From NCBI GenBank assembly GCA_001662655.1, contig KV460211.1: a stretch of 64,000 nucleotides of DNA; one strand, written 5' to 3'. The position numbers and the translations under genes are program-made. Every line of letters begins with the position of its first letter. The stretch's first letter is position 1. The DNA comes from Pseudogymnoascus verrucosus (taxonomy: Eukaryota). Under the pieces are notes generated by a model. The model was given only the letters and a program-made list of their open reading frames with translations. It did no database searches and was not told where the DNA came from. Below, in pieces: positions 21,335 to 57,856 of this stretch.

Positions 21335-21395
21335 ACAGATGACCATAGACTCAAGAGAATTGGGCATCCCGTCCGCTCTGCCATACACAAGCTTG
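21335..21395 (+). pseudogene. 5S rRNA gene 5' half (nt 1-61), truncated
   Basis: acagatgaccatagactcaagagaattgggcatcccgtccgctctgccatacacaagcttg matches the recalled ascomycete 5S 5' region. TATATA about 30 nt upstream (21305). Similarity ends at CGTAACA. Confidence 0.85.
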
Positions 21396-21518
21396 CGTAA
21401 CATCAGATTAATGGTCTCAATCGTGCCAATAGGCATAGCGCGGAATCACGGCCCCTTGCCGCCTGAAGGGTGAGGCGAGGGGTGAGCAGGGTGAGTAGGG
21501 TGAGTAGGGTGAGTGAGG
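21396..21518 (+). mobile_element. Putative element terminus abutting the truncated 5S gene, ending in (AGGGTGAGT)-type tandem repeats
   Basis: 21429-21474 matches 57810-57855 at 39/46 nt by manual alignment. Followed by agggtgag units x~5. Confidence 0.55.
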
Positions 21519-21753
21519 CGAAGCAACATTTTCGTGTCAGTTTGGCGTCAATTTGTGTTGTAATAGTTACATGATCTCATGTGATCTCCGTACAGAATAT
21601 TAGTAAATTCTAGGAGTAGATTACATAGTTAGTAATACATTAATTTCTTACTTAATAGGACTGACTCTACGGGCGTTTCAGCAGGATAATCCCTATAAAA
21701 TGATGAAAAGTATTAACTTACAAGAACTACTCAATTTCAGAAGCCCTCTACTT

Positions 21754-23390
21754 TCACGCGACAGCCTTAATCTTACTCTCATCAATATGCCACATCCCCA
21801 TCAACAACTTTTTCGCCAACCCCACCTCCACCGTCGCAATCCTCTCCTGCACCTCCTCCCGACTCGTTGCCAACTTCTCCGCAACCGCCTCCCATCCCAA
21901 TCTCTCCCCTCCCTCAAGCTCTACAGCTACCAGCTTCCCATCTTTCTTCCTCACCACCCCATCCACAATCACCGTCTCCACATCTCTCACACTACTATGC
22001 CCTAACACCGCCACCACAGGATCCCACTCCGCAACCCCCGACATCGCAGGCGACCTCCCATCCACCACCACCAAATCCGCCAAATACCCTACTCTCACCC
22101 TCCCAATCTTCCCCTCCATCCCCAGTGCTCTCGCCCCTCCCACAGTAGCAAGATTAAACGCATCCCTCGCCCTTGCCACCAATCGCTGTGGAAACTCTCC
22201 CCTCTCTAACAGCTTGAGGTTCCCCTCCTGCCGCGCCAAGAGCAACAACGTCCGCGCTTCAGATAGGATGCTCGACTCGCAGAAGGCGTGGCTATCGACA
22301 CCGAGTGAGCCATGTACCCCGCTGTGTAGGGCAACGGGCCAGCCTAACCCCATTTGCGCTTCGGAGGTGGGTGTGCTGGAGACGTTGGCACCTGCGGAGT
22401 AGAGGAGGGCGTGTTCATCTGGTGTGAGACCTGTGGCGTGGGATAGGACGATGTCTGGGCCTAGGAGGCCGTATTCGTGGAGCAGCGTGACTATTGAGCC
22501 GGTGCCTGAGGTTGTGTTAGTCGCTGTTGAAGCTGCGCGGGGGAGATAGAGGTAAGTGATAAGTACGGACCACAAACAGCGTTCTTCGAAACGTGACATG
22601 TAATAACTTTAACCCCCGCCTTGCGGAATCGGTTGAATATCCCTATTATTATCTCGCGAGGGAGGAAAAAGAAGTCGAAGCCCAGTCCGATGGTGACGCG
22701 GCCATTGCCGAAAGGCTGGGAGGTCGCTAGGGCTTCGAGTTGGTCGAGAGACCATGCGGGAAGGATGTCGGATGAAAGCATGATGGAGTCTTTGGTCCAG
22801 GAGGTGAGGGGGATGCTGACGGCTGAGTAGGCGTAGATCAAGCGAAGGCCAGAGGCGGAACTTGCGGCCAGGCATTGGGTTGCTGGGGTATGTTAGGGGT
22901 CGCAGGCTGGACGAGTGAGAGGCAGAAACGACATACCGTGTTCTGCTGTATATATACTGTGCGAATGGTCGAGAACGAACGTGGTCCCCGCGTCAATGGC
23001 CTCGAGGCATCCTCCTAGCTGGCCCCAGAACATATCCTCCGGCGTGTAGTTAAAACTCTGCGGATTCCCTGCACATACTAATTAGCACTCCTCTCATTAT
23101 CTAGGAAACATCACCTTACCTGATGCCATATACTCCAGCAGCGTCTCATCCATATGACGCCCTTTTAACTGGGTCTGCCACATATGGTGATGCGTGTCGA
23201 TGAATCCGGGGGAGATGATTTTGCCGTGGCAATCGATCACTGTCGTGCCAGGAGGCACGTTGATATTCTTGCCGATCTCCGTTATCAGATTTCCTGTGAC
23301 GAGGACGTCGGTATCCTTTAAGGCAGTCACGTTGTCGGCATCGTCGTGGTAGAGGACTGTGCCGCCTTTGAGGATGATAGTTGACGTCAT
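21754..23390 (-). CDS. Metal-dependent amidohydrolase (AtzA/MTA-SAH deaminase-like); exons 23390-23120, 23068-22937, 22882-22571, 22505-21754
   Basis: PGFIDTHHHMWQT HxH motif, AGTTFVLDHSH, ITCHV, LSHA, SLGVDSH, ATVGGARALG…GYLADLVV. Three canonical introns. Confidence 0.9.
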
Positions 23391-24293
23391 CTTGCGATTT
23401 ATCCCAACAATTTATGAGAGTGCGTGGTGCAGAGTCAAAAGCTTAATGAACTTCTCAAAATATTTTACAGCTAGAACATGATGTTTAGAGTCACTTCTTT
23501 ATATGCTATAGATATGCTAACTTATAGATATTTGCTTATCATAGTTAACAAGTGATGATTTCGCCGACTGGGTGGGGTATTCTCCCATTCTTCCACACTT
23601 TCTTCAACGATCGAATGCCAAACTTCGCCGGCAGTTGGGAGCTACAGTAGAATACCATGACTCACTTCTAGTTATCAGTTAAGTTAGCAGAATTCAAGTA
23701 GTCTTTAATCAGCATGCTCCGTCGTAAGCCCGAAAGGCCGAGTATTGGGTAAGCAGGGCGGGTTTACTGCTGCTAGAGTCCCGAATTCCGATATCGCAAC
23801 ACCGAGTATTTTTTATTTCCGTATTGCCAAGTACGTTTCTGATAGCAAACGTTTGACATTCGCGTCTGATAGAGCCGGAACGCCGGATAGTAGTCCTGTA
23901 GACGGTAACGTTGTAAATGCAAAATCATGATGCAAAATCAATAATAGTCGTAGGGGATCTGATATTTGGATTCTAATCGTCGAATCCGCCTGTTACGCGA
24001 AGCCAACAACGCCTAAATATAACTTAAAAATACTGCCCATGCGTTTACCCAAGCACTTATTTTTTGAACTACTCGCATCATGCCAGGATTCATAAGGAAG
24101 CAAGAATAATTCTTTACCACATTTGTATGCTATTCAAAGCAAGCCTACGGCCCAGCAGATATATCGCACCCCACTTATCGCAAAACCTCAAGAGCAATCT
24201 ACCACGCCTATAAAATCACTTTAACTGTTCGAGTGGAAGGTATTTAGGATCTCTGAATCAACACAACGACCAGATTCATCCCAAGTCGTGAAA

Positions 24294-25723
24294 ATGGCTA
24301 TCGATTCCCAGCAAGCCAACGGCTCCTCAGAGTGGTCCGACAGTGCCTTCACCCCAACGATGCGCCTTAGCTCCGCTGGGCAGCCCGAAGTCAAGAAGGC
24401 CGTTGGCTTAGACGGACCCGTTACATTTGCTCCTACGCCGGCGCCGTCCCATAACAGTGGCCAACCGAACGGCGGATTGTGGGCATGGCTGCAAGTCGCC
24501 GCCGGGTTCTGCATCTTCTTCAATACATGGGGGGTGCTCAACACCTTCGGCATCTTCCAGACGTACTACGAGACGGGCGTGCTATTCAACGAGTCGTCGT
24601 CTAACATCTCATGGATCGGCTCCATTCAGGCGTACTGCGTCATGGTTGTCGGCCTGATATCGGGGCCGGTCTATGATAGGGGCTATCTCCGCGCGCTGCT
24701 GCTATCGGGGTCGTTTATGATCGTGTTTGGATTTATGATGTTGAGCATTTGCAGGAATTTCTGGGAGGTGTTGCTTGCGCAGGGTTTCTGCATTGGCATT
24801 GGGGCGGGACTGATCTTCGTGCCATCGTTGGCGATCCTGCCAACGTACTTTAGCACGAAGATCGGGTTGGCCATGGGCTTGGCGGCGTCGGGATCTTCGT
24901 TAGGAGGAGTCATCTACCCTATTGTATTCTACAAGTTGATTGACCAAATCGGCTTTGGCTGGTCCGTTAGGGTCATTGGCTTCATAACCCTGGGTACACT
25001 ACTTCTCCCAATCTGCTTCATGAGGATGCGAGTCAAACCGGCTAAGCCGAGGGCTATCCTTGACTGGTCAGCCTTTACAGACTGGCCGTTAGTGTTCTTC
25101 ACGCTGAGTACTATGATCGGATTCATCGGACTCTATACGATGTTGTTCTATATCTCATACTTCGCCGCTGCAGCCAATATCACTACTGCCGAAATGTCTT
25201 TCTACGTGGTCCCGATTCTGAACGCTGCATCGATATTTGGCCGAACAATTCCAAACGCCATTTCTGATAAGACTGGCCCATTGAACTGTAAGATGAACAT
25301 AGCCATTTTGTTGATCCTCGGTTAGTTACTAATATGTTAATAGTATTCGGTCCTGCCGGCATCGTCTGTGGTGTCTTAACTTTCTGCATACTCTCCGTAA
25401 AAAATCTGGGTGGTATCGTTCCCATCGCAATTCTCTATGGATTCTTTTCCGGCGTCTTCATTGCCCTCCCAGGAGTTTGCTTTGTGAAGTTGACAGCGGA
25501 TAAGTCTAAGATTGGCACGCGCATTGGAATGGGCTTTGCAGCGTTTAGTTTCGGCGTCCTAGCAGGCGGACCAGGGGGTGGTAGTGTCATTGGCAGCAAT
25601 GCTGTAGACCTTCACTGGCAACACTTATGGATCTACGGTGGTTGCACGATGATGGCTTCCGGTGTCTTGCTATTTGCTCAGAGGTTCTGGTTGTCTAAGG
25701 GTAAGGTATTTATCAAGATATAA
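24294..25723 (+). CDS. MFS transporter, monocarboxylate porter (MCH/Mch5-like); exons 24294-25287, 25344-25723
   Basis: PNGGLWAWLQV, NTWGVLNTFGIFQTYY, SNISWIGSIQ, GLAASGSSLGGVIYPI, ILNAASIFGR, IGTRIGMG. About 12 hydrophobic segments. Confidence 0.92.
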
Positions 25724-26205
25724 CTAGAGTCCTTGTTCTCGCTCTTATAAAGGCAGCTTATATAATAGGTGTTAAGGGGAACGCCTTGAGGTTGTCGCGA
25801 TAGCCAAGCAAGTCGAGAAAAGCTATGGCATAACTCGGTCCAACGCGTCAACGCCTGTATTTTTATAGGGACTTCTATTCTATTCCTGACCCACGAGCGC
25901 ACCACGAATAAAAGTCACCTAATCTTGGCCGCCATTGCCTAACATTGTCAGCTTGGTACGAAAGCAGTCCACTAACACTAAACTGGGTGATTGCAATGAG
26001 TGGAAATGGATGGACAACTAATGAGAGAGTTCTAGATTAGATTCAGCATTTCAAGAAATATACAAACGCTTGTACAAAGGGCATATATCGCCTCTTAATC
26101 CTCAGTGGCCATCAGAGCCACCACTCGACTGAGTTTAAGCTTTACTGTAAAGATAATAAGATCATTACACTTTGTATGCCTCCCCATTCATCGCACATCG
26201 TCCAA

Positions 26206-26223
26206 CCCACTGTTGTATGTTTT
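26206..26223 (+). pseudogene. Possible extreme 3' end of a 5S rRNA gene plus T-run terminator
   Basis: cccactgttgtatgt followed by T-run. TTGTATGT can pair with the 5S 5' end ACATACGA (helix I, one G-U). Only ~15 nt. Confidence 0.4.
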
Positions 26224-26508
26224 GGTCGTTTTATTTATTTGTAGATTTACTTTGTCCTTGGTGTCCACACCTTATTTAACCGGCAGGTTTATGGCTTCTT
26301 CATCTGTTGCGTATCACGTATAATATCATGTTCATTCAACACGGAGGAGCTGCATTGAGTGTATTCCTCTAGAAGGGTGTCCTAGTATTTACACCTACAA
26401 CAAGTTAGCGAAGCGGGCAGTCGGATCTGACGATTACTTGCAGAATGAAGACAGAAGGCAAAGGTTACGGGGGGTCTCGGAACGGATAATGTCACAGGGA
26501 CCAGTTGT

Positions 26509-27579
26509 TCACGATATATCTTTTTCGTCTCGAAGTCTAATTTCGTGCACCATCTCCACGTGATTCTTAAAATGGATAATGTTGTTGAGAAGTAGCCCTT
26601 CGGCCTTGCAAATTAGATACTGTAGTAGCATTCATACTTTCCTGCTGTCCTCTTTTCTAAATTCCTCTCAACATAGTCTATCATCTTGTTGGGTTTTGAG
26701 AATTTGCGCATCTGCCTATTGTAACTCTAGCGATCGTCGCTAATGTAGAATATACAGTGAGTTTTCTCGCAGATTAGGGGGAAAGTATTAGGAACAGGCG
26801 ATTCTTCCTTTACTATAGGGAACTCTCTAAGAGAAGATGCCTAGGACGATTTGCTTAACTACGACTTATAACACTAGACTTCTTAGCGACGAGATAGTTC
26901 GACTATTGTGTTGATAGCACAAATCCGTTACATGACGATGTCATGTGGATTAAGATCCTTAGAGAGGTCGCATATGATTTCTTAAAGCTAGGTCCGTTCC
27001 AGCAGCTAGTGCTTAACGACAGGCTTAACATATGTTAGTGCCATGACTATGATCTTCTTAATGATCTTCTTAAGTTCTTCTTTGTAGATATAATAGAAGT
27101 AGTCCTGCTGGTACTCCCTCTTGAGCTCTTGCTCAAGCATCTTCGTTACCGTAGTAATCTGTCTATTTAATTGATGATATTCTTCACTAGCTTCTGTTCT
27201 AATCGAACCCTGAACAAATGCGTCTCCATACAAACGCTTAAGCTCCAAGCAAAGCTCTTGCTGCTCAAGCTTAAGCTGCACCAGCTCTGGATCGGGCGGC
27301 ACTGCCTGAGGCGCGCGGGGATCACAAGTGAGGCTCATGTGCGTGAAGGCCCGGAGAAAGCCAGAATTGCTAGGCTAGTCTAGCACTGCATCTTGAACGA
27401 TAAACCTGACTTTTTTATTATTTTGTATGATCTGCAAAAGGCGCCAGTCTAGAGATTGTGTCTTAGTATCTGGTCGCGAACTGCTATCGTCGCAGCCCCT
27501 ACGCACTCGTTAGTTAAAGCAAACTATGATCAATGAGGAGTTTACCGTCAACAGTGTTTCCTGTGCCTCTACGAAAACA
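26509..27579 (-). pseudogene. DUF3435 tyrosine recombinase (Starship captain) relic, 5'-truncated and RIP-like mutated
   Basis: Manual translation: CFRRGTGNTVD|G(intron 27499-27545)AATIAVRDQILRHNL*TGAFCRSY…VRFIVQDAVLD*PSNSGFLRAFTHMSLTCDPRAP…H*LLERT*L*EIICDLSKDL…FPLICEKTHCIFYISDDR…HFKNHVEMVHEIRLR. About ten TAG/TAA stops and one frameshift near 27415. Confidence 0.85.
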
Positions 27580-27829
27580 GGGTTAACGCTACGGAAATGT
27601 AGGGGAACCCAGTAACTTTGCGAACATGGCCGAGCATACGATAATGGCGGCATCTGCACGTTTCCAGTAATTCCTACCGTAGTTTCTCATGATGGTGGTT
27701 TCCATGCTGGACTAACCCCAAAGCGCAACTATCGCTAATGCAAAGTAACCAAGCGCGAATGAATCTTCAACGAATAAAACCTAATCGTAGGTGGAAGCGA
27801 GTGCGCGCATCCAGGGCCAAATTTCCAGG

Positions 27830-28070
27830 TATCTTTATGTAGTAAATTATATGTAAATGTACAAAAGGTTAATAAATTGTGATAATTACTATGCTATTTC
27901 TAACATAAAGGTACATATAAATAATAACAAACGTTCTAAATAACTTTATTAAAAGACAAATAATAATACATTAATATACTCTATTACCTATACTAGAATA
28001 TCTAAAACTTAATAGTTATATAAAAGTGTTAATTAATAAAAATGTTATATACCTATACGAACGGGAATAA
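27830..28070. other. Very AT-rich, TpA-rich tract (RIP-like degraded DNA)
   Basis: For example taataatacattaatatactctattacctatactagaatatctaaaacttaatagttatataaaag, close to the captain relic. Confidence 0.6.
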
Positions 28071-28109
28071 AATTCGCAGCAAGCGGAAGCTGTTGAAGAT
28101 AGATATGCC

Positions 28110-29299
28110 TTAAGGGCCATTGTCAAGCTCATATGTATTAAATGGATACGATGAGCCCTTCTCGAGGAGAACAAACGGATGGTGATAAATGCCTGACTGA
28201 GTTGCAACACTCCAAACTTGACCCTGATTCTGTGCCTTCTCCCAAAAAAGGGCCATGTTGTAGAGCTCCTCAGATCGTACAGCATAAAACCAGGTGAATA
28301 ATGTGTACAAACTAACCCTTAATCGTCCTTCATAATGCTCTGTCCCAGATGCTGATACAGGTGGAGGCGTAGCCGAAGGGATAAACTTCGCGTCATACGC
28401 CCATATCCACGGTGTAGAAGTGTTAATGCACGCATCCACAACTTCGGGAGTGACGAGTAGAAATGTGTTGCTTGGAACGCGAGGATTTAGGACAGCCTCT
28501 TCCGCCAGTCGCTGCTGGAAAATGCTAGAATGGGTGTCAGTTAAGAGAAATTTCAGGATAACGGCACGAAATGAACAAACCTGCGTAGAATTTCAGGGTT
28601 ATTCTCGGACACAGGCTCGTCTGCTAAAATAAACTCTTTCGTTAGTATAATGGCTGTGCCACCGACCATCTGTCTGAGACTTTCATCTACACAACTATCC
28701 ATGACAGACAGAAACCTATCCCAAGAATCACTGTTACTGTCGCAGTCTATGGCACTATCTCGAAAGATAACAAAGCCCCAACGTCCAGTCTGTTCGCTCC
28801 ATGACATTGATGGGTTAATAAGATTTCGTACCCATTTGCAGGGTCGGTTCATGTCGTCAGCGTATTTCTTCATTGATGCCTGGATTTCTTTCCTTTTAGC
28901 CGCTGCAAAGACGTTTGATCTAACACTAGCAGCTAACAACACAGCATTATCTCGAGAAGTTGCAATTGCGTGACGGGCTTTGATGTGAGCCATAAGGTCC
29001 TCGTGACCCCAACGAAGTATGCTGTTTGCAGTCGCCTCTTGTGGACTCCAAATGTGATACCTATCCAGGACTAAACGGCATTCTTCAGAAGTCATCGACT
29101 CAGGACTTGTGAGGGCTTTGTTCTGCAATTGTTCTAGTGTGAGTCCACTGACTTTGAGACTATTAGCAACCTGTGTGGCGAGGTCTGGTTGCCGCAAAAT
29201 AACAAGTCTTTCGGCTTCTGTTATTTGGTCCGGAGTTTGGAGAACCTTGACCCATAGCTCTCTCTCTAGAGGAGTTGGAGGAATATCTGGACAGTCCAT
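28110..29299 (-). CDS. Hypothetical protein (WGFVIFR motif); exons 29299-28581, 28524-28110
   Basis: Two ORFs (248 and 109 aa) are joined in frame by a GTTTGT..CTGAC..TAG intron at 28525-28580. Confidence 0.7.
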
Positions 29300-30265
29300 C
29301 TTGATGTTTTGCGAGACTGGTGATTTCGACGCGATTTACGTTCCCAGTAGTCTTACTGAGAAATTTTGTCTCGCACATGCGCGCGTCTATCGGACAAATA
29401 GCGCCCGATGATGACCAACCATCGTCAACTGCCAACCCCACACGCACGCATTCGTATTAAGAATTCGCAACGATGCTAGTAAGTAACGTCTCCGATTATA
29501 ACATTCGTAGAAAGGAATGCTACCCAGCTCTGCTGCTCCGTTCTTTTTCACTACTATGGCACCGTACTCCCTACTTGGGCTCGTGGCTGACCTCTCTCTC
29601 CCAAGCCTACAACTCCATCTTCAACTCCGAGCTCTCCCCTCGACTAATTGGCCAACTTCCCGTCCTCCCTCTCGTTGAAAATTTGAATAATGGTGTCCTA
29701 AGCTTGGTGTCTAGCACTAGCGGATTAAATTGTGGATCTGAACATCCATTTATCCACCATGCCACCCTAGGTGCCACACCCGATGGTCTCGATGGTTGTC
29801 ACCACCCGATGGTCTCGATGATCCCTCACCAGTTACCACTGACTTATTATTCAAATCAACTCCATCTTTGGATAGGTAGGGAGTGAATCACCGGTAAGGG
29901 GGTGAGTCACGTGATAAATCAACGTTTCGAGGTGAATGATGTGATTATAGCTCGGGTGACCTCTCTTTGCTCTAAATCGGGAGGGTCTCTGGCCCAAATA
30001 ACCACGCAGAATCAGACACCAACATCTTGAAACCCCGTGATGTATTACAGTAGTTTCGTATTGTTGGGAAAAGAGGACGGGCACCGTTTTAGCTTACGTA
30101 CCTTGTTCAGGTGTCTTGCTCTTATTTTATATAACAAATACTAGACAAGAATAGCAACTTAGTTTAGAATTGGGGAGGTTTAGAATGGGGGAAGTTCAGC
30201 ATGGGGGAGTGTCAGCAAGAGAATGAAAAGAGTGTGGAAAAGGCATAAGTGGAAGCCAGAAGTCT

Positions 30266-30960
30266 TTATCTAACATGTTTCGATTCAAATGTCTCTAGGA
30301 CTTTGTCATAAAAGCCTAATTTCCCAGGGTCAAGGTAGACCCTCACGGCGTATGCTAAATTCTGGACGTCATGATTATTAAGAGTTGTCGACAGCATGTT
30401 ATCAATCTGTTTAGAAGCTTCAACACTTGCCACCTTCTCCACATATTCCTTCCGCTCTTGCCACCTTCGTCTTGTGTCCTCATCTAAGGGTTGACCATTC
30501 TCATCGTAATTCCAAGGTGCGTCCATAGAGAAAGGTACCGTTTCTAAGAAAAGCGGAAATTCCACCAACTCCCAAGGTATAGTACACGCACCTTCCCAGT
30601 TGATGACACCAAGTACCTTGTAGCTCAGTTGAAGCCGTGCGATCGATCGAGACTGATTGTCGAATTCAAGCAGGCGAACTAGGTGAAATTCTCCATTGGT
30701 GATATTTGGGAGTATTCTGCATTTGATAGAATTGTTGAGAGTTGAGGCGTAGAGACATAACTCGTCCCAATTGGTTTCTTTATGCGATCATCCAACAAGC
30801 GACGGCGGGAAGAGCCGTCGGCGTAGAAATCAGTACCCTTCCAATTCTGCCCGGAAAAAAAGAAGTCTGGTAAAGCCATTTGGGAGGAGGCTGACTTCAG
30901 AGTGAAGTGTGAAAGGCGAAAAGCGAAATGCTTCTCTTCACTACGTAAATAAGGCGGCAT
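30266..30960 (-). pseudogene. APH/kinase-like phosphotransferase pseudogene (frameshift plus internal deletion)
   Basis: After a frameshift near 30775: NWDELCLYASTLNNSIKCRILPNITNGEFHLVRLLEFDNQSRSIARLQL runs directly into YKVLGVINWEGACTIPWELVEFP…WNYDENGQP. The central catalytic region is missing. Confidence 0.65.
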
Positions 30961-31493
30961 TCTCAGGGCGCACGGCTAGAAGGTGGTGAACCCCTGTTCG
31001 ACCCCAACAACCACCATCGAAGCACACATCGCAGTTCCCAACCAACCGTTGCCCACTCCAAGAAGGTTGCGGTGAGTATCATACTCTGCACCATCTCCAC
31101 GGGGCTGTCTCTGAGATTTTCTACCCGTTTATACTGTATTGCTCAGCCGCTCTCTTACGAAGTTATCCCTATTTACGGACACGTCGTCCGAACGCGCAAG
31201 ATTGACCCAAGGCGCGGATATAGCGACACGCTATTGTAGTATAATGGAACTGTAAACAAACCTCAACAATCAAATCCTATCCCCGGTACTCCGATATGAT
31301 GGATACCATTTGGTGCTTAGTTCATGTTGAAGGAATGCGTTCCGGTTCCCCGAAAAAGGAGCTAACATACCCCAAGCTTTTTCTAACTTAGCCGGTAGTG
31401 GGTTGCTGTAGAGATGCTACGCTAGTTTAGGCACCCATTGCACATTTTAATGATTAGTGTTAATACCTGCCAAATTATCAACGACCAAAAACA

Positions 31494-32327
31494 ATGCCCG
31501 CAGCTCTGTCAAAGTTCATTCAGTTGGTTCGGCGCATGATATTGGGATCCCCAGCCCAGCGCACGCCAACCGGCAGTCAGACTATCTTTGGTCTCAACCA
31601 TCCTGACCCTGTTGCCTTTGACTTCTCCGCATCCTCGACTACCGTCGATATCACTATTCCACCCTACAGTGCCTGGATAACTCAACATCACTGGCATGAA
31701 ACCGCTTAAGCCTGCGAGACAATCGAGCCGCAAGAAGGTTCCTACATGATCAGCCTCTCTACTGTGGCTACGAGGGGTACCAGCCTTCATGTAGGTGATG
31801 GGAAAGGTTTCGTGCTGCCCTTACGCCCAGGCACGATAGTTCAGTGGAAGCGAAATCCGCACTAGGTTGGCGCAGAAAATGAGGCTACAGTGTTTCGTTT
31901 AAAAGGCCCCGTAGAGATGCTCGATTTTTATTGACAAGTTTGTAGCGTCAATCAGGATGCCGAGGTGTACTTTCAGTTACCATCAACACCTTTGTGGTTG
32001 CGCGGCCTCTATGCGTTCTGGGCTGGGATACCATACTTTGGTACGCGACTGAGAGCATGGTTAACGAGTCAGCTCCTGTGGGTTCAGCTGCAAGTTATCT
32101 ATTACAAGAACGATTACTTTACTCGTGAGGGTTCGATACCATTTACAAGGCCATGGTGGGATCTGCCAGGTGCGAGAAGACCTCCAGAGAAATGGATGAA
32201 TCGTGAGTTGCGGAGTCGTGTGATAATTTCAAAGCTTCTACAGACATGGTGTTACTACATTGGGACAACGCTGTTGGGAATGAGAAGCTGGTACGAAGAA
32301 TATAAGACGCTAAGGTCTAAAAATTAA
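31494..32327 (+). pseudogene. Single-frame 278-codon gene (cupin-like HWHE motif) with three nonsense codons
   Basis: ORFs 31494-31709 and 31965-32327 are in the same frame. Read-through passes TAA (31707), TAG (~31863) and TGA (~31932), each one C>T from CAA/CAG/CGA. Confidence 0.65.
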
Positions 32328-32865
32328 GCAAAGGGGAACGAGGTACAGGCGAAGGTGAAAGAGGGACAGAGGCGAAAGATTACTGACATGTTGGAACGAA
32401 GAGGAGTGTGGGACTGTCCCAAGTCAATTCAACTTATCCTTCGCGGACAACGCAGATGATAAAGTCTCGCTCATCCCTTTTTGTCCGCAGAATCAGAATT
32501 ATTGTTTCGCAGTCAGCTCTCGGAAAAGATGGCACGAAAGATTCAGTCAACTATAAGCTTGAACTTAGATGTCAGCTTGCTTTTGTCTTCATAATCAGAA
32601 TCGTTCTTTCGTAGTCAGCTCTGCTCAAAAATGTTGTAGGCAGCCGGTGCAACGGTGAAATGTGGTGCCGGCCTCCGATCTGAGACCTGCATGCAGCTTG
32701 GGCTGGGCTACAGCTTGTGATTTAGTTGGAGCCCCGAAGCTGTCTACATATAGTACGTAGGCCCCGTATATAGTATTAGTTATCTCCATCTTCCTTCAAA
32801 CCCATAATACCAAACCTAGCTTCTAATAACTCGCATTCCCAATTATCCTTTCGAGCGCTATCATC

Positions 32866-34080
32866 ATGGCGGGGGAGATCCTAGCATTAGTGAAGGGTAT
32901 GGACGCAGTCCACGAGGCTGGAGCATCTCACTGACAGGCAACAGAGACAACCACCTCTATCTTGTCAGACAACTCAACAAACCAGGTGGCATGGCAAACC
33001 GAATTCCTCGGCCTCGTCCCCCTCGCTTTAAACGCCATGACCCAGCCTTCCAGCCTCGACATCAACCGCCCTGAATCCAGCCTGCTCTTCATGGCTCGCA
33101 GCTCGCCATTTATATGCGTCGCAGATACCCTGGAAGTTCTCATTGCGCTCTGCCTCTACACTTATCAGGAAGGGAGCATATCCGAGGCTGCACGACTTGT
33201 GAACCGGAGAATAGCGAGGTCGAGACTTGGGAGCGGAGAGTCTGAATTAGAAGCAAGCGCTGTCGAGAAGCACCCGTGGACTTTTACTATCTTGTTTCTT
33301 GCGGCGCTGGTACCAGCGATTAAATTCCTCGGATTGCAAGGCTTATTCTGGACAAGAGTCTGGGCGGGTATTTATCTATGTCCGTACATCGTGCTCGCTA
33401 TTGTTCGCGCCCTGGCTTCTAAGGGTTGGCGCGACCGGCCCCCGGTTGCCTCTCTAGCAAAAGTGCCCTCGTTTCACGAGAAGTTGCTAGGAATTGTTAG
33501 AACTGTGCTATTGGTGGTGGCTGGCGCAGTGCATGCTTCTGTTAGCTACTGGGCTCTTATTTGCGTGCAACGTAAATATGAAGAGGTATATATAAGACCA
33601 TCGGATCTGATGGAAGGTCTTAAATTAGGGCTGCATTTTCTACCTCCGTTGTTGATAAGTGCCTCTCTCTTCCTGCTGTATTTTTATTTCATAGGGGTTG
33701 ATCTCACTTGGAGATCTATTAAAGCCGCAACGATGGTTCATCATAAATTCGACTGGGTGCCCACAGCGGCGGCTATATTGCTTTTTTCAATTCATGTTTC
33801 TCTAATGATAGGATTCGGTTATCCAAACGCATATTTGGACATTGTTAGCGGAGTTTGGCCTATACCTCTGTGCTTTGGTCTACTATTCCTGCTTTTCACT
33901 ATCTTGTCAGTTCTCTCTAATAAGGTGCCCTTTTTAAACTTTTTAGAGATCGACGATGGCGATTACAAGGCCCTTCTTGTTTTTCCATTTTTGAATTTCA
34001 TACTAGCACTTTTATATTACCTGGTTGTATATGATCCTACTGGGACAGCGAAGCCTTCGTGGACTGAGGAACTTGGGTAG
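32866..34080 (+). CDS. Multi-pass membrane protein of unknown function; exons 32866-32896, 32945-34080
   Basis: 372-aa ORF with ~8-9 hydrophobic stretches, LALNAMTQPS, RSSPFICVAD and C-terminal YDPTGTAKPSWTEELG. A short ATG exon splices in frame. Confidence 0.75.
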
Positions 34081-34342
34081 ATAGCTTTTAAATGGAGAAA
34101 TATCTATATCCATAATATACTACTGACCGGGAAGCACACGTATCGGGTAACTGGTGGCTCAAATGATGAGCGACGACTACCTGCGTCAAGTTGCGTTTAT
34201 AGAGATAATCAAAGAACCTGTTTTTCTTGTTGCTGTCTTCGAGCTGATGCAGAACGTTGACTTCTCTGTCTGGCGCAACTTGGTATGTGATATCATCGCG
34301 AGGAAGACGATAAGGACTTGTATATAGTCATTGTGAGCTGAG

Positions 34343-34398
34343 TTGTAGGAATATGACCGTCGCCTAATAATCGACGTAATATTCTCATATTCCTACAA
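34343..34398. repeat. Perfect 14-bp inverted repeat (hairpin)
   Basis: ttgtaggaatatga (34343-34356) and tcatattcctacaa (34385-34398), with inner cgtcg/cgacg. Confidence 0.8.
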
Positions 34399-34926
34399 AA
34401 TCACGTATCACATCACACATATCACATCAAATCAGACCAAAACTTATGTTCTCAAAATATCATTAATAATTAAACTCAAAACTACAAAAGCAGGTAGGTA
34501 AGCAAGAAGGGTATTATCCCAACCCCCCTGCCCCGCCTCCATCGACCAGCGACATCAATACAGCCATCATACACACCACCCAACCCAGCACAGGCAGCGA
34601 GCTCAGTGTCCACGAGCACACAACTACCTTCCATATCGCAGGCACCATTTTTTAATTTTCCACACTCGTACTTCGAGCATGCCTCCTCCTCCCTAAAAAC
34701 CAAGATAAAACTCGTACTTCAAGCTATATCACCCCCTTTGATTTCTCTCTCTCTCTCTTTGATGTGTGTGCTGGGTCATGTTGGGCTTATCGGCCACCAG
34801 GGCCATCCAGAAATTGCTGGATTAAGGACATAGTACTCATCTCCCGAAGACAACCACTGGGATCTAGAATCACGAGGACCAGCCCTAGCGCCCCATCCGC
34901 GGATGGGAGCAACGTCACGGGGCCTG

Positions 34927-35541
34927 CTACGAGTCGTCGTCTAGGAGGACCCAGTCTGGGTCTTGGGGGATGAAGGTCCATGATGGGTCGGCGAGTTTGG
35001 TGGTGGTGATGAGTGTTGCTGTGGGTTTGTCTGTGCCGTCTGTCGCTCCGGGGGTATGGAGGGGGACGGGGAATTGCGTGGGGAACGACGCGTGTGTTGT
35101 TGGTAAGGACTGGTGTTGGAGTGTCTGTGTCTCCTTCTCCGCTGGCTCCTGGGGGGATTGCAAAGTGGTGAGGCGCAGGATCTCGGAGTCGTCCATGAGG
35201 TAGGAGGACAGGAGGGGGGGCGTGGGGATTGTCAGGGGTGAACGCCGGGAGTTGTGCCGTCTCATTGTTTTTGAGAGTTTTGCGGGTTTGGAGAGGACGT
35301 TGTAGAGGCGGTAGGGGAGAGGGGGAAAGTTAACATCCTTGTCCTTGGCCTCGTCCTTGTCTCCGTCCTTGGTATCCTCGTTGTTGACGCCTGCGGTGAA
35401 CACTCCAGACTCCAGTGTGGGTGCCTCGCTCTTCTTCTCGCCGTCGTCGCGGATGGAATCGTATAGGATGCCAAGAGCGCGCAACGCCTGTGCTTGTATA
35501 AGCTCGTCTCCTTTGTCTTGAGTCCCTATTGAAACTGACAT
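34927..35541 (-). CDS. Hypothetical low-complexity protein (204 aa)
   Basis: Intronless ATG ORF with host-like codon bias. No recognisable domain. Confidence 0.45.
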   Translation of the reverse strand: MSVSIGTQDKGDELIQAQALRALGILYDSIRDDGEKKSEAPTLESGVFTAGVNNEDTKDGDKDEAKDKDVNFPPLPYRLYNVLSKPAKLSKTMRRHNSRRSPLTIPTPPLLSSYLMDDSEILRLTTLQSPQEPAEKETQTLQHQSLPTTHASFPTQFPVPLHTPGATDGTDKPTATLITTTKLADPSWTFIPQDPDWVLLDDDS

Positions 35542-35676
35542 GGTGGTGGAGTGGAGATAGGTGTGAGATGGTGGATAGAGAGGTGAGGTGGTGTAGTGGA
35601 GTGAGTGGGTTGATGAGTGGTGAAAGACTGAGAGAAGATGGGTGTAGACGTGTGCATGTATCTGCAGTATGCAGAA

Positions 35677-36042
35677 CTAGGGATCGGTATAATCGATGTC
35701 CCCCCACAGGGCATACACGACGCCGAGCATACTGGCACAGAGACTTACGTCATCGTCTGCATCACCCCCGAAGAGGCGGCACTGCTCATCCTCCTCCTCG
35801 CGCCGCACCTCGTGCGCCATCCATGCCAGCCAGCTACGTTCGAGCGACTGTGGCTGTGCGCCGCCTGGGAAGGGACCCGAAAGGGGTAGGAACGCCGTGT
35901 CGTGTGCCAAGAAGGCGCCCTCGAGGTACTCGTCGCGCGGATCAACTTTGCGGGAGAGGGCGTGGCGTTTGCGTGCTCCGCGACGCATGCGGCGACGGTT
36001 TTTGGGGAAGGAGGGGACCGGTGTGACACCTGGTATGACCAT
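35677..36042 (-). CDS. Small hypothetical protein (~121 aa)
   Basis: ATG at 36042 (MVIPGVTP…). Basic patch RRRMRRGARKR and acidic C-terminus EQCRLFGGDADDDVSLCASMLGVVYALWGDIDYTDP, reminiscent of small conserved ascomycete proteins. Confidence 0.5.
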   Translation of the reverse strand: MVIPGVTPVPSFPKNRRRMRRGARKRHALSRKVDPRDEYLEGAFLAHDTAFLPLSGPFPGGAQPQSLERSWLAWMAHEVRREEEDEQCRLFGGDADDDVSLCASMLGVVYALWGDIDYTDP

Positions 36043-36489
36043 GTTTGCGAGAAGCGGAAATCGAGATTTATAGGAAATAGAAATGATTCTTCTTTCAATC
36101 CAGGAGATGGGCAAAATTGGACGGGGATTAACCCCGAGAAAAGGGAAAACTATCACTTCGCCAGTGGCAAGAGTAGAAAGTGTAGAGGAGAAGTGAGTAG
36201 ATAGAATATGAAGCCAAGGAGATGTAGCAAACCTTTATAGATATGACGATGACTCCCTCCCGTTCCTCCCGAGGAGTAACCTTCCAGGCTTCCAGGGCTT
36301 CCCGAATGCCCAGACTGTCCCCGCTAGAGTCACGAGTACTTACAACTTTATGGTGTATGAAGGTGTGAGTCGGTGATGCTATCAGGCGGCGCGGTAAATC
36401 GAGGGATTGTTGAGGTATAGTGGAGGATGATGAGATGTGTGTGGGATGAGGCGTGATTGGTATAAATTTTGGTGGGATGTGGTTGGTGT

Positions 36490-36526
36490 GGGTGTAACTG
36501 GGTGTAACTGGGTGTAACTGGGTGTA
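36490..36526. repeat. 10-bp tandem repeat (GGGTGTAACT) x3.7
   Basis: gggtgtaactgggtgtaactgggtgtaactgggtgta read directly. Confidence 0.85.
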
Positions 36527-37188
36527 GGTGGTTGGCAGGTTTGACTCACATGGAGAGAGAGGTTGGTAGTCATACGGAGTTATCATCCAGTGACACAGCC
36601 ACACGACAAGGCAGAGAAACAGGATTAATCCCAATGCGGCCTGGGAAATGCAGGGTTTAGATAGTATTTAAGGCTTTTTGCACATGATTACTTGGATTTT
36701 TAGTGATTTTTAGAGCATTTGAGAGTATTTTATTCTTTTTTCTGAAACTTTTTATAGAGTGTGACTTCATAAGTGAGGCGGTCCTGCAGGTGTCAAAATC
36801 TCAGAATAGTACGTACCTACGTAATTGTGGTGTAATCTTTATCGGGCTTTATCGGAGAGTCTCCGATGCACGTGACACCCCACCAAAAATAAATCATGAT
36901 AAAAAATTGATGACTAAGACAGGGACGGACCCCGGATCACGTGATTGCAAATACAACCCCACAAAAGAAAGTCTGTGCTCTAACCTAACAGAATCGATTA
37001 CGCTAGACCCTGTTGGTATAGGCGGTCACTGCCGGCAATTCGAGATAGCACCCCCAAAAAAGTTTTGGTGATACTGAGAAAGAACTACTGCGAAAGAAGT
37101 CCTAAGTTCTATTCCTGCCCCAACGACGGTGTGATGCCCGCCATTCAACAATCTTAGAGGCCTCCACGGGCGCGATTCAAATACCACC

Positions 37189-44312: not shown

Positions 44313-44718
44313 AGCACGCACATTTGGAATAGTAATTAGTAGAATACCCAGTTGGAGTTGGGTGTGCACATTTGGAGATCTCTGTACAGCGTTATATGAG
44401 CTAGTAGGTCAATGGCAGGTATACGCAGTAGTCATAATAGATAGTAAACGGAAGCTTTACCCTGAGACCATCTCTTACCCTCTGAATTTAAGCTACCTCG
44501 TCGCTGTGTTTGCACCTACCAATAGAATATGTAGATAAAGTAGTAATTATGTTCTTTGGTTGGTAATAATCCCCAAGGCAATCCGGACCTTGCAATACCA
44601 TGAGGAGAGGGTTACGGGGCAAGGAGGCCAGAGCACAATGGCACAGTATGACAAGTTGTTGAAAATTTGTATCGAAGAAGAGCCTTCACCAGCCTCCGGA
44701 TATCAGCATATTGTTACA

Positions 44719-44779
44719 CAAGCTTGTGTATAGCAGAGCGGACGGGATGCACAATTCTCTTAAGTCTATAGTCGTATGT
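44719..44779 (-). pseudogene. 5S rRNA gene 5' half (nt 1-61), truncated, with C>T changes
   Basis: Minus strand: acatacgactatagacttaagagaattgtgcatcccgtccgctctgctatacacaagcttg then TGTAACA. TATATATA lies 23-31 nt upstream (44802-44810). Confidence 0.88.
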
Positions 44780-44886
44780 AGCAATTATAGTCGTATAGGA
44801 GTATATATATAGAATATCGAGTTGGGATTACCCCTCAACCCACCAAGCCAGTTTACTAATACACCATACTCCCCTTTCCTTCCCCC

Positions 44887-50938: not shown

Positions 50939-51081
50939 ATTTTAATAATATTCGTCGGTTCTCAGGATATCGCGAGGCAATGCACGATGTATCGTCTTGA
51001 GGTAGATCGTATATGGCGCCTAATTCTGGAATTATGCCTCGTGAATGCTCCTAATGACGACGAGCTGCGTGGTCAGATGCC

Positions 51082-53335: not shown

Positions 53336-53784
53336 TTTTGTTGTGGTGGTGGATGTCGGCGAATCGATACCGTCTGTGAAGCTGTGGTGTTTTGTTGATG
53401 TTTCTCCCTGCACTCGGCTATAATCCGGAGATGGGCGGCTCGTTTCGGCCACGTGCAGATCTTCCTTCGCGGGGCGTGAAATCCGGGGTATGGGGTATGG
53501 GGTATGGGGAAATCCCTAAGCCTGCTTTGGCTGGCGATAATAACTATAAAGATGTCAGATTGCTCTGTTTTCCTGGCCGGGTATCCGGTTCTATCTTTGT
53601 GGCTCTGCAGACCCTCTGCAAAAAAAAAACTGAAGATGTTGAAATTCCGAGTGAAAGCTGATGCATTGGAGCGAGAAGGGGTATATATTGGAGATTGGGG
53701 GGGTCGAAATGTCCTTAGACCTTCTAAAAACAAAGAAGGTCAATATGGTAAGTTTCTCTTGGTTATTCACAAAGATTTCAATTA

Positions 53785-55806
53785 ATGGCCATGGTAGATA
53801 CATCCGAGGATCGTATTGAGCGGCTCAATACCATGGAGCCAGATTGGGAAGCCAAAGAAGAGAGAGCTCTTGTCCGAAAATTAGACCTCCGAGTGCTATT
53901 TCCTTGCGGTAAGCATCCATTGAATATTACTTCCCTATACTTTTGCTAATTACATGGCTAGTTGTGATCTATGTGCTGGCATACCTTGATCGGTCCAATC
54001 TTGGAAATGTCAAGATTCTCCAGAAGGGAGGTCCCGACTCTCTGGAAACCAGTTTGAATCTTAAAAATGGCGACTTTAATTGGGTGGGTTATTCCTCGTT
54101 CCGTATCCTGGATAATGACTGATTGGCAGGCCGTATCCATTGCATACTTCACCGTCACCGCGATGCTGATTCCAGCCACCCTCTTGCTGAAAAAGTTATC
54201 CGCTAAGATATTTTTCCCTATTTGCATGGTTCTATGTGAGAGGCTTTCCATATCCTATTCTTAAGGATAGTTCAGCTAATCTATACCAGGGGGGGCAATC
54301 GTTATGAGTATGGGCGCCTGCAGCAATTCAGGGGGATTGTTTGCAGCTCGGTTCTTTCTCGGAGTTCCAGAAGCAGGAGTGATAACCTGCGGGATAATGT
54401 TCTTCAGTTTCTGGGTACATATTTTCAACTATGGATCTGTCATAGAAGTTTTGCTGACTCGATTAAGTATAAACCAAGTGAGCGTGCCATTCGAATAGGC
54501 ATATTTTACAGCTCGAATTCAATTGCTCAAGCAATTTCCGGATTTCTTGCAGTCGGAATTGATCATGTAAGTAAATATACTACAACAAGAAAGAAGATAA
54601 TGCTAATATTTGATAGTTAAACGGCCATGGAGGTCTGAAATCATGGCAATGGGTCTTTATAATCGAAGGCGCCATGTCAATATTCTGCGCTATACCTATA
54701 TATTTCATACTGTTAACATTTCCTGAGGATTCAACTGCTTTATCTGATAGAGGTATGTCAATTTCTGCCTCCATTATTACAAAATGACTTACTTGAGTAG
54801 AACGATACATTGCCATTAATAGATTTGGACGTGGAAGCACCCGTAAAACTGACGTTTCTTGGGATACGATGGCATTTATTAGGTACCTTTCAACCAAGAC
54901 ACGAATTTAATGTTGATTTTTGCTAAACTTATAATATAGGATTATGACTCGCCCGTCAACTTATGCTTTCTTTCTGAGTTATATATGCATTGCGATTGCG
55001 GCAGTTGCACAAGCAACCTTCCTCCCAACAATCCTTAAATCAGTGAGCTTCAGTTTCCCTGACTTTACATACACTAGCTGACCCTGACAGTTGATGAAAT
55101 TCGATACCACGAAAGCAAATATCTATACCGCCATTGTGAATATTGTGGCAGTTCCACTATATTGGACCTATCCTCTTCACTCGGACTGGACGAGAGAACG
55201 AATGTGGCATTTTATTGTTCCAGTGGCAGCTTCTGTTCCATGTTACGCGGTGTGGACTTATGCTGGTTCACACCCTAATGAGCATACCATTAGCTATATT
55301 TCTATGTACGGAATGGCCTTTCTTGGACAGCTGTTACTTGTTGCACAGCCGGTATTGCTATCGTATCGCAGCTCCACGCTATACGGTGCAGCTGAGCAAG
55401 CTGTGGGGACTTCTACAGCTGTTGCATCCCTGTCCATTGCAAGTATAATTGCCCCACAGGTACGCTTCGATTTTTATATCATTCGCAATATTGTTTCCTT
55501 CACCTACTAACAATTAGACAGATGTATCCTAATAGCGATGCGCCATACTATCTTCAGGGATTTACCGCCACTGTTTCCCTACTGGCAGCTAGCATTGTTA
55601 TCTATGCTACCATCCCGTTTTTCCTCCAACTCGAAGCAAGCCAACGCAAGAAAAAGACAGGTCATGCATTGCCATTACAGTCTTTGGAGGACTCAGAGAA
55701 CAGCCAAGTATCCGCAGCTGCAATGGCAGAGTTGCACCAGCTGAATCAACTTGGCGATGGTGAGAATTCTTTGAAACCAAAAGCTGTCCATGAGGAAACT
55801 GTTTAG
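53785..55806 (+). CDS. MFS transporter, anion:cation symporter (Dal5/Tna1-like), many short introns
   Basis: LVRKLDLRVLF, LAYLDRSNLGN, ARFFLGVPEAG, YKPSERAIRIGIF, GLKSWQWVFIIEG, SIIAPQMY…DAPYY. Exon boundaries are approximate. Confidence 0.88.
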
Positions 55807-56137
55807 GAATATTTCATTTTGATGGAACATATTAAAATGGCGATTTCCAATATAGCTGCAGCTACAGCATATTTCAACCTGTATGTCCTATTGTCAGGTG
55901 TAACGGACTCGTAACTCTCGATCCTAGGGATCTACCATAAATACATTTATTGCAACGAAATACAGGAATCTGGCTTTTTATTCACATAAAATTATTACGA
56001 CGCAAGAATTAAATGCTATGGTCACTTGGAGAAACGCTAGCGCGAGTATGCAGTTTCGTCTATGATATTAACACTCCCTCCGACGAAGGAACATGCATGT
56101 GTATATAATCAAATAAGGTTTCCATACCCTAAATATT

Positions 56138-57568
56138 TCAAGGCTCAAACTGCCAGGCGCAAACGGCCATACTCGGCTCATCATCTAACATCGCAGCACT
56201 CGCACTGGCACCATTAATCTTCCCATTAACTGTATAGACATCCATAGCACTAAGTTTTCCCCCCTGATGCCCGTTAAAGGTTGCAACGCCATCAAGAGTC
56301 CAAGTTTCAGAGCCCCGGTCATCCGCAAATGCTCTTTCTAGCTTCAACATGCTAAGTCCCGAACTAGCTTCGCCAGCGAGAACGAAGTACTCGTTTTGTA
56401 GTGGCTCTGTCTCTGGTATGTCCATCGGAACTCCAGGTCCACCATCGGGATCCACGTAGTTAGGGTCTGTGCTTGGATCGTAGTCTTGCTCGTCTTCTGT
56501 ACCAGAAATATAATCTTCATCGTCTGATTCGTGACCTTCAGGTATCAAACTCGCAGGGTCGAAAGTCTCGAGGGAATCCCTTTCCGATGGAATATAATGT
56601 TCCCTTACAAGTTTTGGTCCTATTAATTGATATGATGCCCCTGTCCCAATTGAAGTTTCGACACATGTTTTGCGGTCCTCGTCCAAGTCAAAACTTAGCA
56701 GATTTGAGATTTTGAGCTTCCCATCCCTTCCAGCTGTGATCACCACATCGCGGCTCGGTGTTGAGTTTGAAGGGATGACTGCCACCCCAGTGACTCCCCC
56801 CTCAGAATGGAAGCGTATTGGGTCTTCGGTAGTCATCTCATTAGGGTCTGTTACATCTTCAAGGAGCGTCCAGTAAGACGTAAGAAGATTTCCATCATCT
56901 CCCACACTGTAAATGCCGGAGCTTACTTCCGCAGGCTCTGAAGGTGCGGAACCAGGCTCTGGAGTCCAGGATAAATTCCAGGCTGGCGATGGCGAATGAG
57001 ATGCTAGTGTCCATAATATCTTCGGCTCATCACCTTGAAGACCATGCCCTGGGATACGGACGACATATACAGAGCCTGAATAGAGCGTGCATGCCAAAAC
57101 GCCGGGATGGAGGGGATGAAAGCGGATTGATGTGATAGCAGCTTTCTCCGAGAATGGTGTGAATGTTTTTGACGGCGTAAGACGGGGTGGAGAGCCACCA
57201 GCTGTAAACGTCCGAATCGAGCCGTCTGATGACCCAACAGCTACAGCAGTAGGCTTGCTAGGGGATACATGAAGTGCCGTGACCGCAACTGGAATATCAA
57301 TGGTTTGGGCGATATCACTACCGTCGAGATCAGCCTAGGGGGTTAACCAGGTGAATGTGGGATTTTTCACTCACATATTGTCTGTCGAAATCTGGAACAG
57401 GCGCAATGATCCGGGACTAGAATCACCCTGCGAGTAAGGCAGATCTGTATTCGCAGTTGATGTTCGAGTTCCAACGATGAAATGATCAAGAGCACTGGGA
57501 AGGTAACCAAGGCATGTTGGCACCTGGTGTGGAATCTGTGCCGATGCGCGAAGAATAAATCGAGACAT
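56138..57568 (-). CDS. WD40-like beta-propeller protein, divergent Dph7/Rrt2-like; exons 57568-57375, 57334-56138
   Basis: N-terminus PTCLGYLPSALDHFIVGT resembles the Dph7 start. Also SPAWNLSW, IYSVGDDG, VITAGRDGKLKI, AVCAWQF. 40-nt intron. Confidence 0.55.
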
Positions 57569-57742
57569 GGTAAGTAATTAATAACCCCTTACAACAAATG
57601 TGCTGGTGGAGGTTTGCTAGAAATCTTCTTCCCAGATCCTCAGGAGCTACTCAGTGCAGTAAAAGCAGCATTGGTCCTAGAACGGGAATAGGGAAGTGGA
57701 AGGCTGACAACAAGGGGCAGTTTTGGTGGGGGGTCTTGGCGT

Positions 57743-57803
57743 TAGAGCGACCATAGCTCACAGAAAATTAAGCATCCCATCCGCAGTGCCATACACAAGC
57801 TTG
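57743..57803 (+). pseudogene. 5S rRNA gene 5' half (nt 1-61), truncated, more degenerate
   Basis: …cgaccatagctcacagaaaattaagcatcccatccgcagtgccatacacaagcttg then CGTATCA. Same length as the copies at 21335 and 44779. Confidence 0.8.
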
Positions 57804-57856
57804 CGTATCATAGGCATAGCGTGGAATCGGGGCCTTTTTCCGCCTAAAGGGTGAGT
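57804..57856 (+). mobile_element. Second copy of the putative element terminus
   Basis: ataggcatagcgtggaatcggggcctttttccgcctaaagggtgag matches 21429-21474 at 39/46 nt. Confidence 0.55.

Follow-up and report, generated by a model that had tools for sequence, protein, structure and literature searches.

Candidate decayed junctions of a 5S-targeting element family at three truncated 5S rRNA genes in Pseudogymnoascus verrucosus

In a 64-kb stretch of Pseudogymnoascus verrucosus DNA (GenBank assembly GCA_001662655.1, contig KV460211.1), called here the window, three 5S ribosomal RNA (rRNA) genes stop at the same nucleotide, after position 61, and continue into a common sequence that does not derive from 5S. 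The preferred reading of these three 5' halves (sites 1, 2 and 3), with a probability of about 0.5, is that they are old and decayed junctions of a tyrosine-recombinase element family that targets 5S genes, a multi-copy, genus-wide family that is probably Starship-like. The first-pass annotation of the window had described them as the footprint of a 5S-targeting integrative element family. The kind of event it proposed stood, given the common cut, the common homologous sequence and the match with the target of the published Osiris elements, while the detail was overstated.

Three 5S halves with a common break and a common tail

The fragments were located by blastn, nhmmer and direct reading at the following positions:

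21335–21395, plus strand: site 1, 5S rRNA positions 1–61 (5' half)
44719–44779, minus strand: site 2, 5S positions 1–61
57743–57803, plus strand: site 3, 5S 5' half
roughly 21305–21311: TATATAT of site 1, ~30 nt upstream of the 5S start

Direct reading agreed with the first-pass annotation on the three 61-nt halves, their identical cut and their continuations. All of them stop at ...CAAGCTTG, the ending common to the three is ...CACAAGCTTG, and the next 7 nt past the break are CGTAACA at site 1, TGTAACA at site 2 and CGTATCA at site 3 (consensus YGTAWCA). Homology to positions 1–61 of intact 5S was confirmed for each fragment (88–98%). By blastn, identity was 98% over positions 7–61 for site 1 against the intact 5S of locus L002, 92% over positions 1–61 for site 2, and 88% over positions 20–61 for site 3, whose first ~19 nt have diverged from 5S. 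The corresponding nhmmer E values were 1.2e-17, 9e-16 and 4.4e-9. The Rfam model RF00001 gave no match in the window at the gathering score, at E ≤ 10 or in a local scan, because a half gene is too short for this model. The three sites are gene fragments and not full 5S genes, and they do not reach the full-length RF00001 score of at least 38 bits.

Reference genes were obtained by scanning metagenome contigs with the 23-nt stretch that ends at the break, which returned six loci. Five of them are uninterrupted 5S genes, one of which (L001) leaves the contig end after model position 106, and the sixth, L003, is another truncated copy. Three of the five intact loci were submitted to Rfam and all three were confirmed, with 74.6 bits for L002, 71.5 for L004 and 50.1 for L001 (gathering score 38). 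Past CTTG the intact genes read AGATCGGTGG, with AGATCGG at the break position in close relatives, and they run from AGATCGGTGGATTAGTAG... to ...CTGTTGTATGT, followed by a T run. Since intact genes continue differently after CTTG, the break in sites 1–3 is real; the intact relatives do not read CTTGCGTAAC at this position, the reading that the first-pass annotation had set against its own proposal.

Sites 1 and 2 keep a TATATAT at about −30 to −24 (at site 2 as TATATATATA, ~30 nt upstream of the 5S start), and site 3 has no TATA box. This distance is that of the intact gene L001 and of the contig-end consensus upstream of 5S genes. Each copy has its own upstream flank, with no upstream similarity between copies apart from the TATA box, and the 24-nt spacers between TATA box and gene (−24 to −1) are unrelated despite the constant distance. 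In addition, the 5S parts of the four copies (sites 1–3 and L003) carry private substitutions only, with no common derived changes. Because the upstream flanks are unrelated while the TATA box stands at the canonical −30, separate real 5S genes appear to have been hit, and not one unit copied. The three sites look like independent, once-functional 5S loci and unlike a copied block; the first-pass annotation had already taken them for genuine dispersed 5S loci from the TATA boxes at two of them.

Homology past the break exceeds the 7 nt of the consensus. This longer homology was not part of the first-pass annotation, nor were a DUF3435 remnant and two relics of the 5S 3' end (26205–26220 and 5880–5927) that are described below. 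The tail is made up of these pieces:

21396–21568, plus strand: proximal part of the site 1 tail, aligning to L003 92–276
21569–30083, no strand assigned: block interrupting the site 1 tail; in L003, only 12 nt separate 21568 and 30084
30084–30133, plus strand: distal block of the tail, matching L003 288–338; homology between copies ends here
44709–44718, minus strand: site 2 tail stub (TGTAACA...), of which only 7–10 nt are alignable to the family
57804–57857, plus strand: site 3 tail remnant of ~53 nt, with CGTATCA and the core, ending after one GGGTGAG

Sites 1 and 3 have a 46-nt block in common at 85% identity (57804–57857 region against 21429–21474). Site 1 and L003 are alignable over ~235 nt from the 5S half on and then over 50 nt more, at 88–89%. 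L003 begins a 19.7-kb contig, in which the 5S half and the next ~185 nt match window positions 21335–21568 and the following 50 nt match 30084–30133. The site 1 tail starts with CGTAACA and continues with a conserved core (TCTCAATCGTGCCAATAGGCATAGCG...), short tandem repeats of the GGGTGAG type and repeats of the CGTGTCA type; Tandem Repeats Finder detected an array at 21480–21514. The core at site 3 is ~27–37 nt shorter than that at site 1. A hidden Markov model (HMM) of the tail gave E 2e-8 at site 3, and its values of 2.9e-54 for 21396–21568 and 3.7e-12 for 30084–30133 are those of a sequence, site 1, that was itself a training row of the model. In L003, an ATG-initiated open reading frame (ORF; 339–491, plus strand) starts directly at the end of the conserved tail unit; no relatives of it were detected, and it does not resemble the DUF3435 proteins.

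Copy number was assessed with Logan contigs of four related runs, X2, X3 (organism C), X6 (organism D) and X7 (organism E), compared over window positions 18501–38500. The bin containing the 5S half and the tail had a depth of 40–60 times single-copy in all four. Contigs departing from the window sequence exactly after 21395 numbered 7 in X2, 12 in X3, 7 in X6 and 14 in X7, counts that include an undefined number of intact 5S contigs, and their majority continuation was an L003-like tail. Random truncation points, which the first-pass annotation had named as evidence against itself, are unlikely with 7–14 contigs per run leaving at 21395, the single truncation point examined. At 30105, in the distal block, the depth was 436, 141, 448 and 343 in the four runs against single-copy values of ~54, 17–21, 35 and 39, i.e., ~7–13 times. 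The tail is directly joined to 30084 in contigs of X2, X3 and X6, and to 30087 in X2, X3 and X7. X2 and X7 both have a further deleted copy with an identical ...CTGTATCA junction; therefore, at least part of the family is older than those lineages. The junction thus belongs to a multi-copy family, a 5S half with a conserved non-5S tail of ~0.3–0.35 kb, represented in four related runs and one metagenome contig. The names of matching proteins indicate Pseudogymnoascus.

As for the source of the tail, a diverged 5S 3' half and an inverted 5' half were both tried and rejected, being no better than shuffles (p 0.11 to 1.0, 16 tests). Since neither the 5S 3' half nor the reverse-complemented 5' half aligns above shuffles, the tail is not 5S-derived. 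In prokaryote genome contigs, the tail core matched eight loci over 19–21 nt only, taken as chance, and in viral contigs there were no matches.

The break point and published 5S-targeting elements

The break lies at the edge of CAAGCTTG, a perfect 8-bp palindrome at 5S positions 54–61. A 15-nt junction pattern (CAAGCTTGYGTAWCA, at most 2 mismatches) matched the window seven times, against 0.30 expected from shuffles, and three of the seven matches are the exact junctions. The pattern matches both strands at every site, since YGTAW is a partial mirror image of ATACA, the arm on the 5S side. The site 2 stub and its 5S side together form a perfect 16-nt palindrome, TACACAAGCTTGTGTA. Such an 8-bp palindrome between partly inverted arms, one belonging to the host and the other to the element, is arranged like a recombinase core site.

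DUF3435 tyrosine recombinases mobilize the giant elements called Starships, in which the recombinase gene, the captain, is the first at the 5' end and reads inward. A set of 222 curated sites in PMC11162782 has 23% of them in 5S rDNA, at no fewer than five positions and with direct repeats of 6–16 bp. For Osiris navis, an element of the Enterprise family in Aspergillus fumigatus, insertion is described as "specifically" in 5S rDNA, and Starships have a hotspot in a 5S-rich region there. Table S3 of the Osiris paper gives its direct repeats as ttaagccac, aagcc and aagccacacg, and the AnidSP260548_Starship1 entry for A. nidulans in Table S1 of the starfish paper gives AAGCC. In the Rfam alignment, the universally conserved UAAGC loop motif contained in the Osiris repeats falls on ACAAGC in the local 5S; the break follows 3 nt later, after AAGCTTG. 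The break thus appears to coincide with the published Osiris target (the UAAGC loop and the start of the 3' strand of helix II), in a mapping that rests on the conserved UAAGC motif and not on the Aspergillus 5S sequence itself.

Osiris and AnidSP260548_Starship1 are among the closest published elements, inserting at the UAAGC loop and helix II 3' strand and fragmenting the 5S gene. The original Enterprise element is reported to require a palindromic target, and the site here is palindromic too; the window, with up to five 5S relics, recalls the published 5S-rich Starship hotspot. Osiris differs in that the host here, judged from protein names, belongs to another class, the Leotiomycetes, and the terminus does not clearly resemble gaacgcggtcaataccc, the inverted repeat of Osiris. 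There is also no captain, second direct repeat or inverted terminus at the present sites, where 7 to ~300 nt of element end remain, and the ~10 copies per genome are above the copy number reported for Starships. Voyager, which inserts 20 bp from the 5' end of 5S, Starship-2_Aten and Starship-1_Anig likewise integrate within the 5S gene and have long direct repeats, but they use other 5S target positions. Among the four Pseudogymnoascus rows listed, genomes have 11–33 DUF3435 genes, and the rows listed in the starfish survey include one delimited element in the genus.

For the A. niger element Anig_Starship1 ("targets 5S"), Table S1 of the starfish paper gives the direct repeat ACATACAACAGAAGG. 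The window has a comparable sequence at 26205–26220, a 16-mer identical to the 5S end and followed by TTTT, ~290 nt from the DUF3435 remnant. The resemblance depends on our reading of the A. niger repeat as corresponding, in reverse complement, to the final 15 nt of 5S. The DUF3435 remnant and the 16-mer, however, are not oriented to each other as in a captain-first, inward-reading layout.

Bacterial integrative elements at tRNA genes are a further parallel, drawn in the Starship papers themselves. They also combine a tyrosine recombinase, a small RNA gene as landing site and the build-up of islands, but they usually restore the tRNA gene, whereas the 5S gene here is left truncated.

The use of dispersed 5S genes by Starships, both for landing and as hotspots, has already been published (2022–2025), so the principle is not new. 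What is added is an apparently undescribed 5S-junction family in the Leotiomycete genus Pseudogymnoascus, apparently at the position in 5S that Osiris uses in Aspergillus, and the look of such sites after long decay, namely half a 5S gene with a few to a few hundred bases of terminus. Such scars could serve as markers of past integration sites and help to re-read the "truncated 5S pseudogenes" of fungi.

Origin of the junctions

The proposed agent is a Starship-type element with a DUF3435 tyrosine recombinase, which would have recombined at the CAAGCTTG palindrome. Of the two recombinase half-sites, one would come from the 5S side and the other, that of the element, would be the YGTAWCA with which the tail begins, a sequence that repeats part of the 5S arm in inverted form. 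The elements would once have carried a captain and cargo, and later deletions would have left 7 to ~300 nt of terminus and taken away the 5S 3' halves. We infer the tyrosine recombinase as the maker of the junctions from the palindromic layout, the Osiris target and the DUF3435 pseudogene in the region.

Several observations weigh against this proposal. No DUF3435 gene was found beside sites 1–3 with Pfam or a custom HMM; the Osiris repeats, in 5S sense for captain-first elements, predict a captain right after the 5S 5' part. The sole DUF3435 remnant of the window is on the other strand, N-terminally truncated and inside the block that interrupts the tail. A second junction (element end with 5S positions 62–119) was not found in the window, no 5S 3' half follows any copy, and neither the window nor a dedicated look at 20500–45500 revealed the tail start in inverted orientation. 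The earlier claim of three integrations that seeded adjacent islands was not borne out, with no DUF3435 gene, 5S 3' half or inverted terminus at any junction. No empty site with an intact 5S was seen, but no contig bridges the site 1 locus, the left-flank contigs stopping at the repeat (X3 at 21310, X6 at 21123, X7 at 21357). Copies that are conserved over ~0.3–0.35 kb before diverging, ~10 of them per genome, are short and many for Starships, and the extra palindromic arm is only 3–5 nt long and was spotted after the fact. Finally, two X2 contigs apparently have a 5S 3' end with TTTT, then 33–38 nt and then the tail core. In these contigs the tail is entered at 21415/21416, the anchoring 5S piece is only ~19 nt, and ~18 nt at the end of the spacer are similar to the ~18 nt with which the tail begins in truncated copies. 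They tentatively suggest that a complete 5S gene can precede the tail as well, an arrangement not accounted for by simple integration at position 61.

The same two contigs, with a spacer that resembles the tail start, speak in favor of a chimeric 5S pseudogene family, the leading alternative, which we nevertheless consider rather unlikely. The tail would then be the natural 3' flank of a 5S subfamily, joined to position 61 by a single ~80-nt deletion from position 62, and the deleted allele would have spread by DNA duplication or gene conversion, in a birth-and-death process without an integrase. The short conserved unit (~0.35 kb) in ~7–13 copies per genome agrees with it, as does the fact that captain, direct-repeat partner and inverted terminus were all not found in the window. 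Rooney and Ward reportedly described in 2005 dispersed 5S pseudogenes in filamentous ascomycetes, with many copies truncated, and Bartnik and co-workers are said to have found in the 1980s 5S 5' half pseudogenes with a conserved 3' flank in Aspergillus nidulans. These classic pseudogenes are dispersed truncated copies like the present ones and were reportedly described without a mechanism. Truncated 5S pseudogenes are common in this group, at 18–83% of copies in filamentous ascomycetes as cited in PMC5555474. On the other side, homology between the copies starts at 5S itself, the −24 to −1 spacers differing with the TATA distance kept, and conversion needs many 5S loci that already have the tail downstream, a condition that again implies a 5S-targeting sequence. 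In addition, the 5S 3' end pieces in X2 are weakly documented at ~19 nt, and the exact coincidence with the Osiris target would be chance.

It is also conceivable, but quite unlikely, that the ~0.3–0.35-kb tail is a small 5S-associated mobile module in its own right, which would either be moved as the non-autonomous partner of a tyrosine recombinase or travel along with 5S genes. Such a module may be fused to position 61 or lie a few dozen nt behind a complete 5S, at ~10 loci per genome and genus-wide. If true, a defined sequence would be tied to the unexplained 5S dispersal and birth-and-death in filamentous ascomycetes, and the classic Aspergillus 5' half pseudogenes might be explained in retrospect.

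A stricter version of the integration proposal, with three fairly recent events that brought the adjacent genes as cargo (amidohydrolase and major facilitator superfamily (MFS) genes at site 1, a secreted Ser/Gly-rich protein at site 2, and DUF1993 and acyl-CoA dehydrogenase genes at site 3), was judged very doubtful. It draws on the common junction at sites 1–3 and on the 8.5-kb block at site 1. By Pfam, this block contains an amidohydrolase (minus strand), an MFS transporter (plus strand), a DDE_1 remnant and a DUF3435 remnant; it also holds the 5S 16-mer and an orphan ORF:

26041–26241, plus strand: pogo/Tc1-like DDE transposase remnant (Pfam PF03184 DDE_1, E 2.3e-9, profile positions 65–118 of 177)
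26205–26220, plus strand: last 16 nt of 5S (positions 104–119), then TTTT; 16/16 identity, borderline (blastn E 6e-4, nhmmer E 1.8)
26512–27579, minus strand: DUF3435 tyrosine recombinase pseudogene of Starship-captain type (Pfam PF11917, E 1.7e-8)
28556–29335, minus strand: orphan ORF of 260 aa; named relatives all from Pseudogymnoascus at 52–98% identity, no Pfam domain

The presence of DUF3435 and pogo remnants in the block would fit cargo-carrying integration. The DUF3435 pseudogene was the sole significant match of the custom HMM in the window (E 1e-99) and is ~74% identical to Pseudogymnoascus proteins P0002 and P0004 (tblastn). It keeps residues 438–783 of a 783-aa protein in several frames, the N-terminal 437 residues being gone. 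It is 5 kb from site 1, and its stop is ~290 nt from the 16-mer, tail to tail. The 16-mer, which the pogo-like DDE_1 remnant abuts, lies 4.8 kb downstream of site 1 and shares its strand. It may be the second part of a 5S gene split from 21335–21395, or it may belong to the inserted block. Contigs end at about 26204–26214 in four runs, suggesting that the 16-mer/DUF3435 adjacency is multi-copy. The zone from 26 to 28.5 kb is AT-rich, with indices like those of repeat-induced point mutation (RIP) in part. Relatives of the orphan ORF range from 146 to 382 aa, a family restricted to the genus among the named matches.

The history of the block also differs from that of the left flank in organism C, with 46 differences in 4175 nt against 126 in 2746 nt. 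Along the sequence, positions 21506–25725 are 0.5–1.6% diverged from the window and the left flank (18501–21310) is 4–5% diverged, the shift being at the 5S/tail site. This contrast fits an exchange of small fragments between lineages, the phenomenon named in the title of PMC4438637. In organism D, however, the block is as diverged as the flanks (5–8% against 6%), so it is not recent there, and the site 1 5S start is also present in organism E, where a contig reaches 21357. Organism E has no contig over most of 21836–25837, which says nothing on absence of the block.

The position of the block argues against its being cargo. It begins after 173 nt of tail and has the remaining tail behind it, and was thus inserted into the tail and not brought by it. 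In L003 and in other genomic copies this interruption between 21568 and 30084 is missing (an X2 contig, for example, joins 21550 to 30084 with 36 letters between), so the amidohydrolase/MFS block is a later, separate insertion. It entered an existing tail, in one step or as a nest of several events, and was not carried by the event that cut the 5S gene. The earlier attribution of this island to the 5S break was accordingly abandoned. A TTAC-type (Hephaestus-like) target at the block borders was considered and dropped, as no consistent direct repeat was present.

At site 2, the tail of 7–10 nt is followed by the 3' region of a gene for a small secreted Ser/Gly-rich protein and, 2 kb on, by the end of the essential UTP10 gene. 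At site 3, with no captain nearby, the ~53-nt tail is followed by a DUF1993 gene, an uncharacterized ORF, an acyl-CoA dehydrogenase and an AMP-binding enzyme. Both situations speak against the strict version, and nothing marks these neighbors as cargo. The delivery of metabolic neighbor genes by the junction-forming events is not demonstrated by the finding.

A site-specific non-LTR (long terminal repeat) retrotransposon of the R1/R2 or fish 5S-specific Mutsu type, inserted antisense with its constant 3' end abutting the 5S half, would explain the tail lengths from a fixed junction (7–10, ~53 and >220 nt) by variable 5' truncation and would agree with the short tandem repeats near the junction and with the existence of 5S-specific long interspersed elements in animals (PMC5340908), but it is highly improbable, since a truncated insertion should be followed by 5S positions 62–119, which none of the four copies shows, and the scanned ORFs gave no reverse transcriptase or endonuclease match in Pfam.

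Further 5S relics and other window features

In total, the window has up to five 5S relics, the three 5' halves being firm and the two 3' parts (26205–26220 and 5880–5927) weaker, and no intact 5S gene. The second relic is:

5880–5927, minus strand: probable RIP-degraded 5S 3' part (positions 67–119), uncertain, from an alignment tolerant of G>A and C>T

This segment was the top tile in the window, with a score of 43 against a mean of 24.4 (sd 4.1, maximum 40) in 300 shuffles, and its nhmmer E value was only 1.8. It is placed between a poly(A) polymerase gene and a NACHT gene. The latter (6148–9440, plus strand) is of the NOD-like receptor (NLR) type, with a SesA N-terminal domain, a NACHT/NPHP3_N NTPase and many ankyrin repeats. 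Genes of this class are often found near or on Starships.

Searches of the window with conserved motifs of the 5S 3' half gave chance-level matches only, and a match at 14347 was rejected as false, being a TAG microsatellite. The surrounding tract (14300–14460) is a long TAG/TAGTAG microsatellite-like sequence with extreme RIP-like indices (TpA/ApT 1.77).

Just upstream of UTP10, three tandem copies of TGGGTGTAAC are present at 36489–36528. The region 35000–37000 shows a strong GC skew (0.25), with several long overlapping minus-strand ORFs that have no Pfam match.

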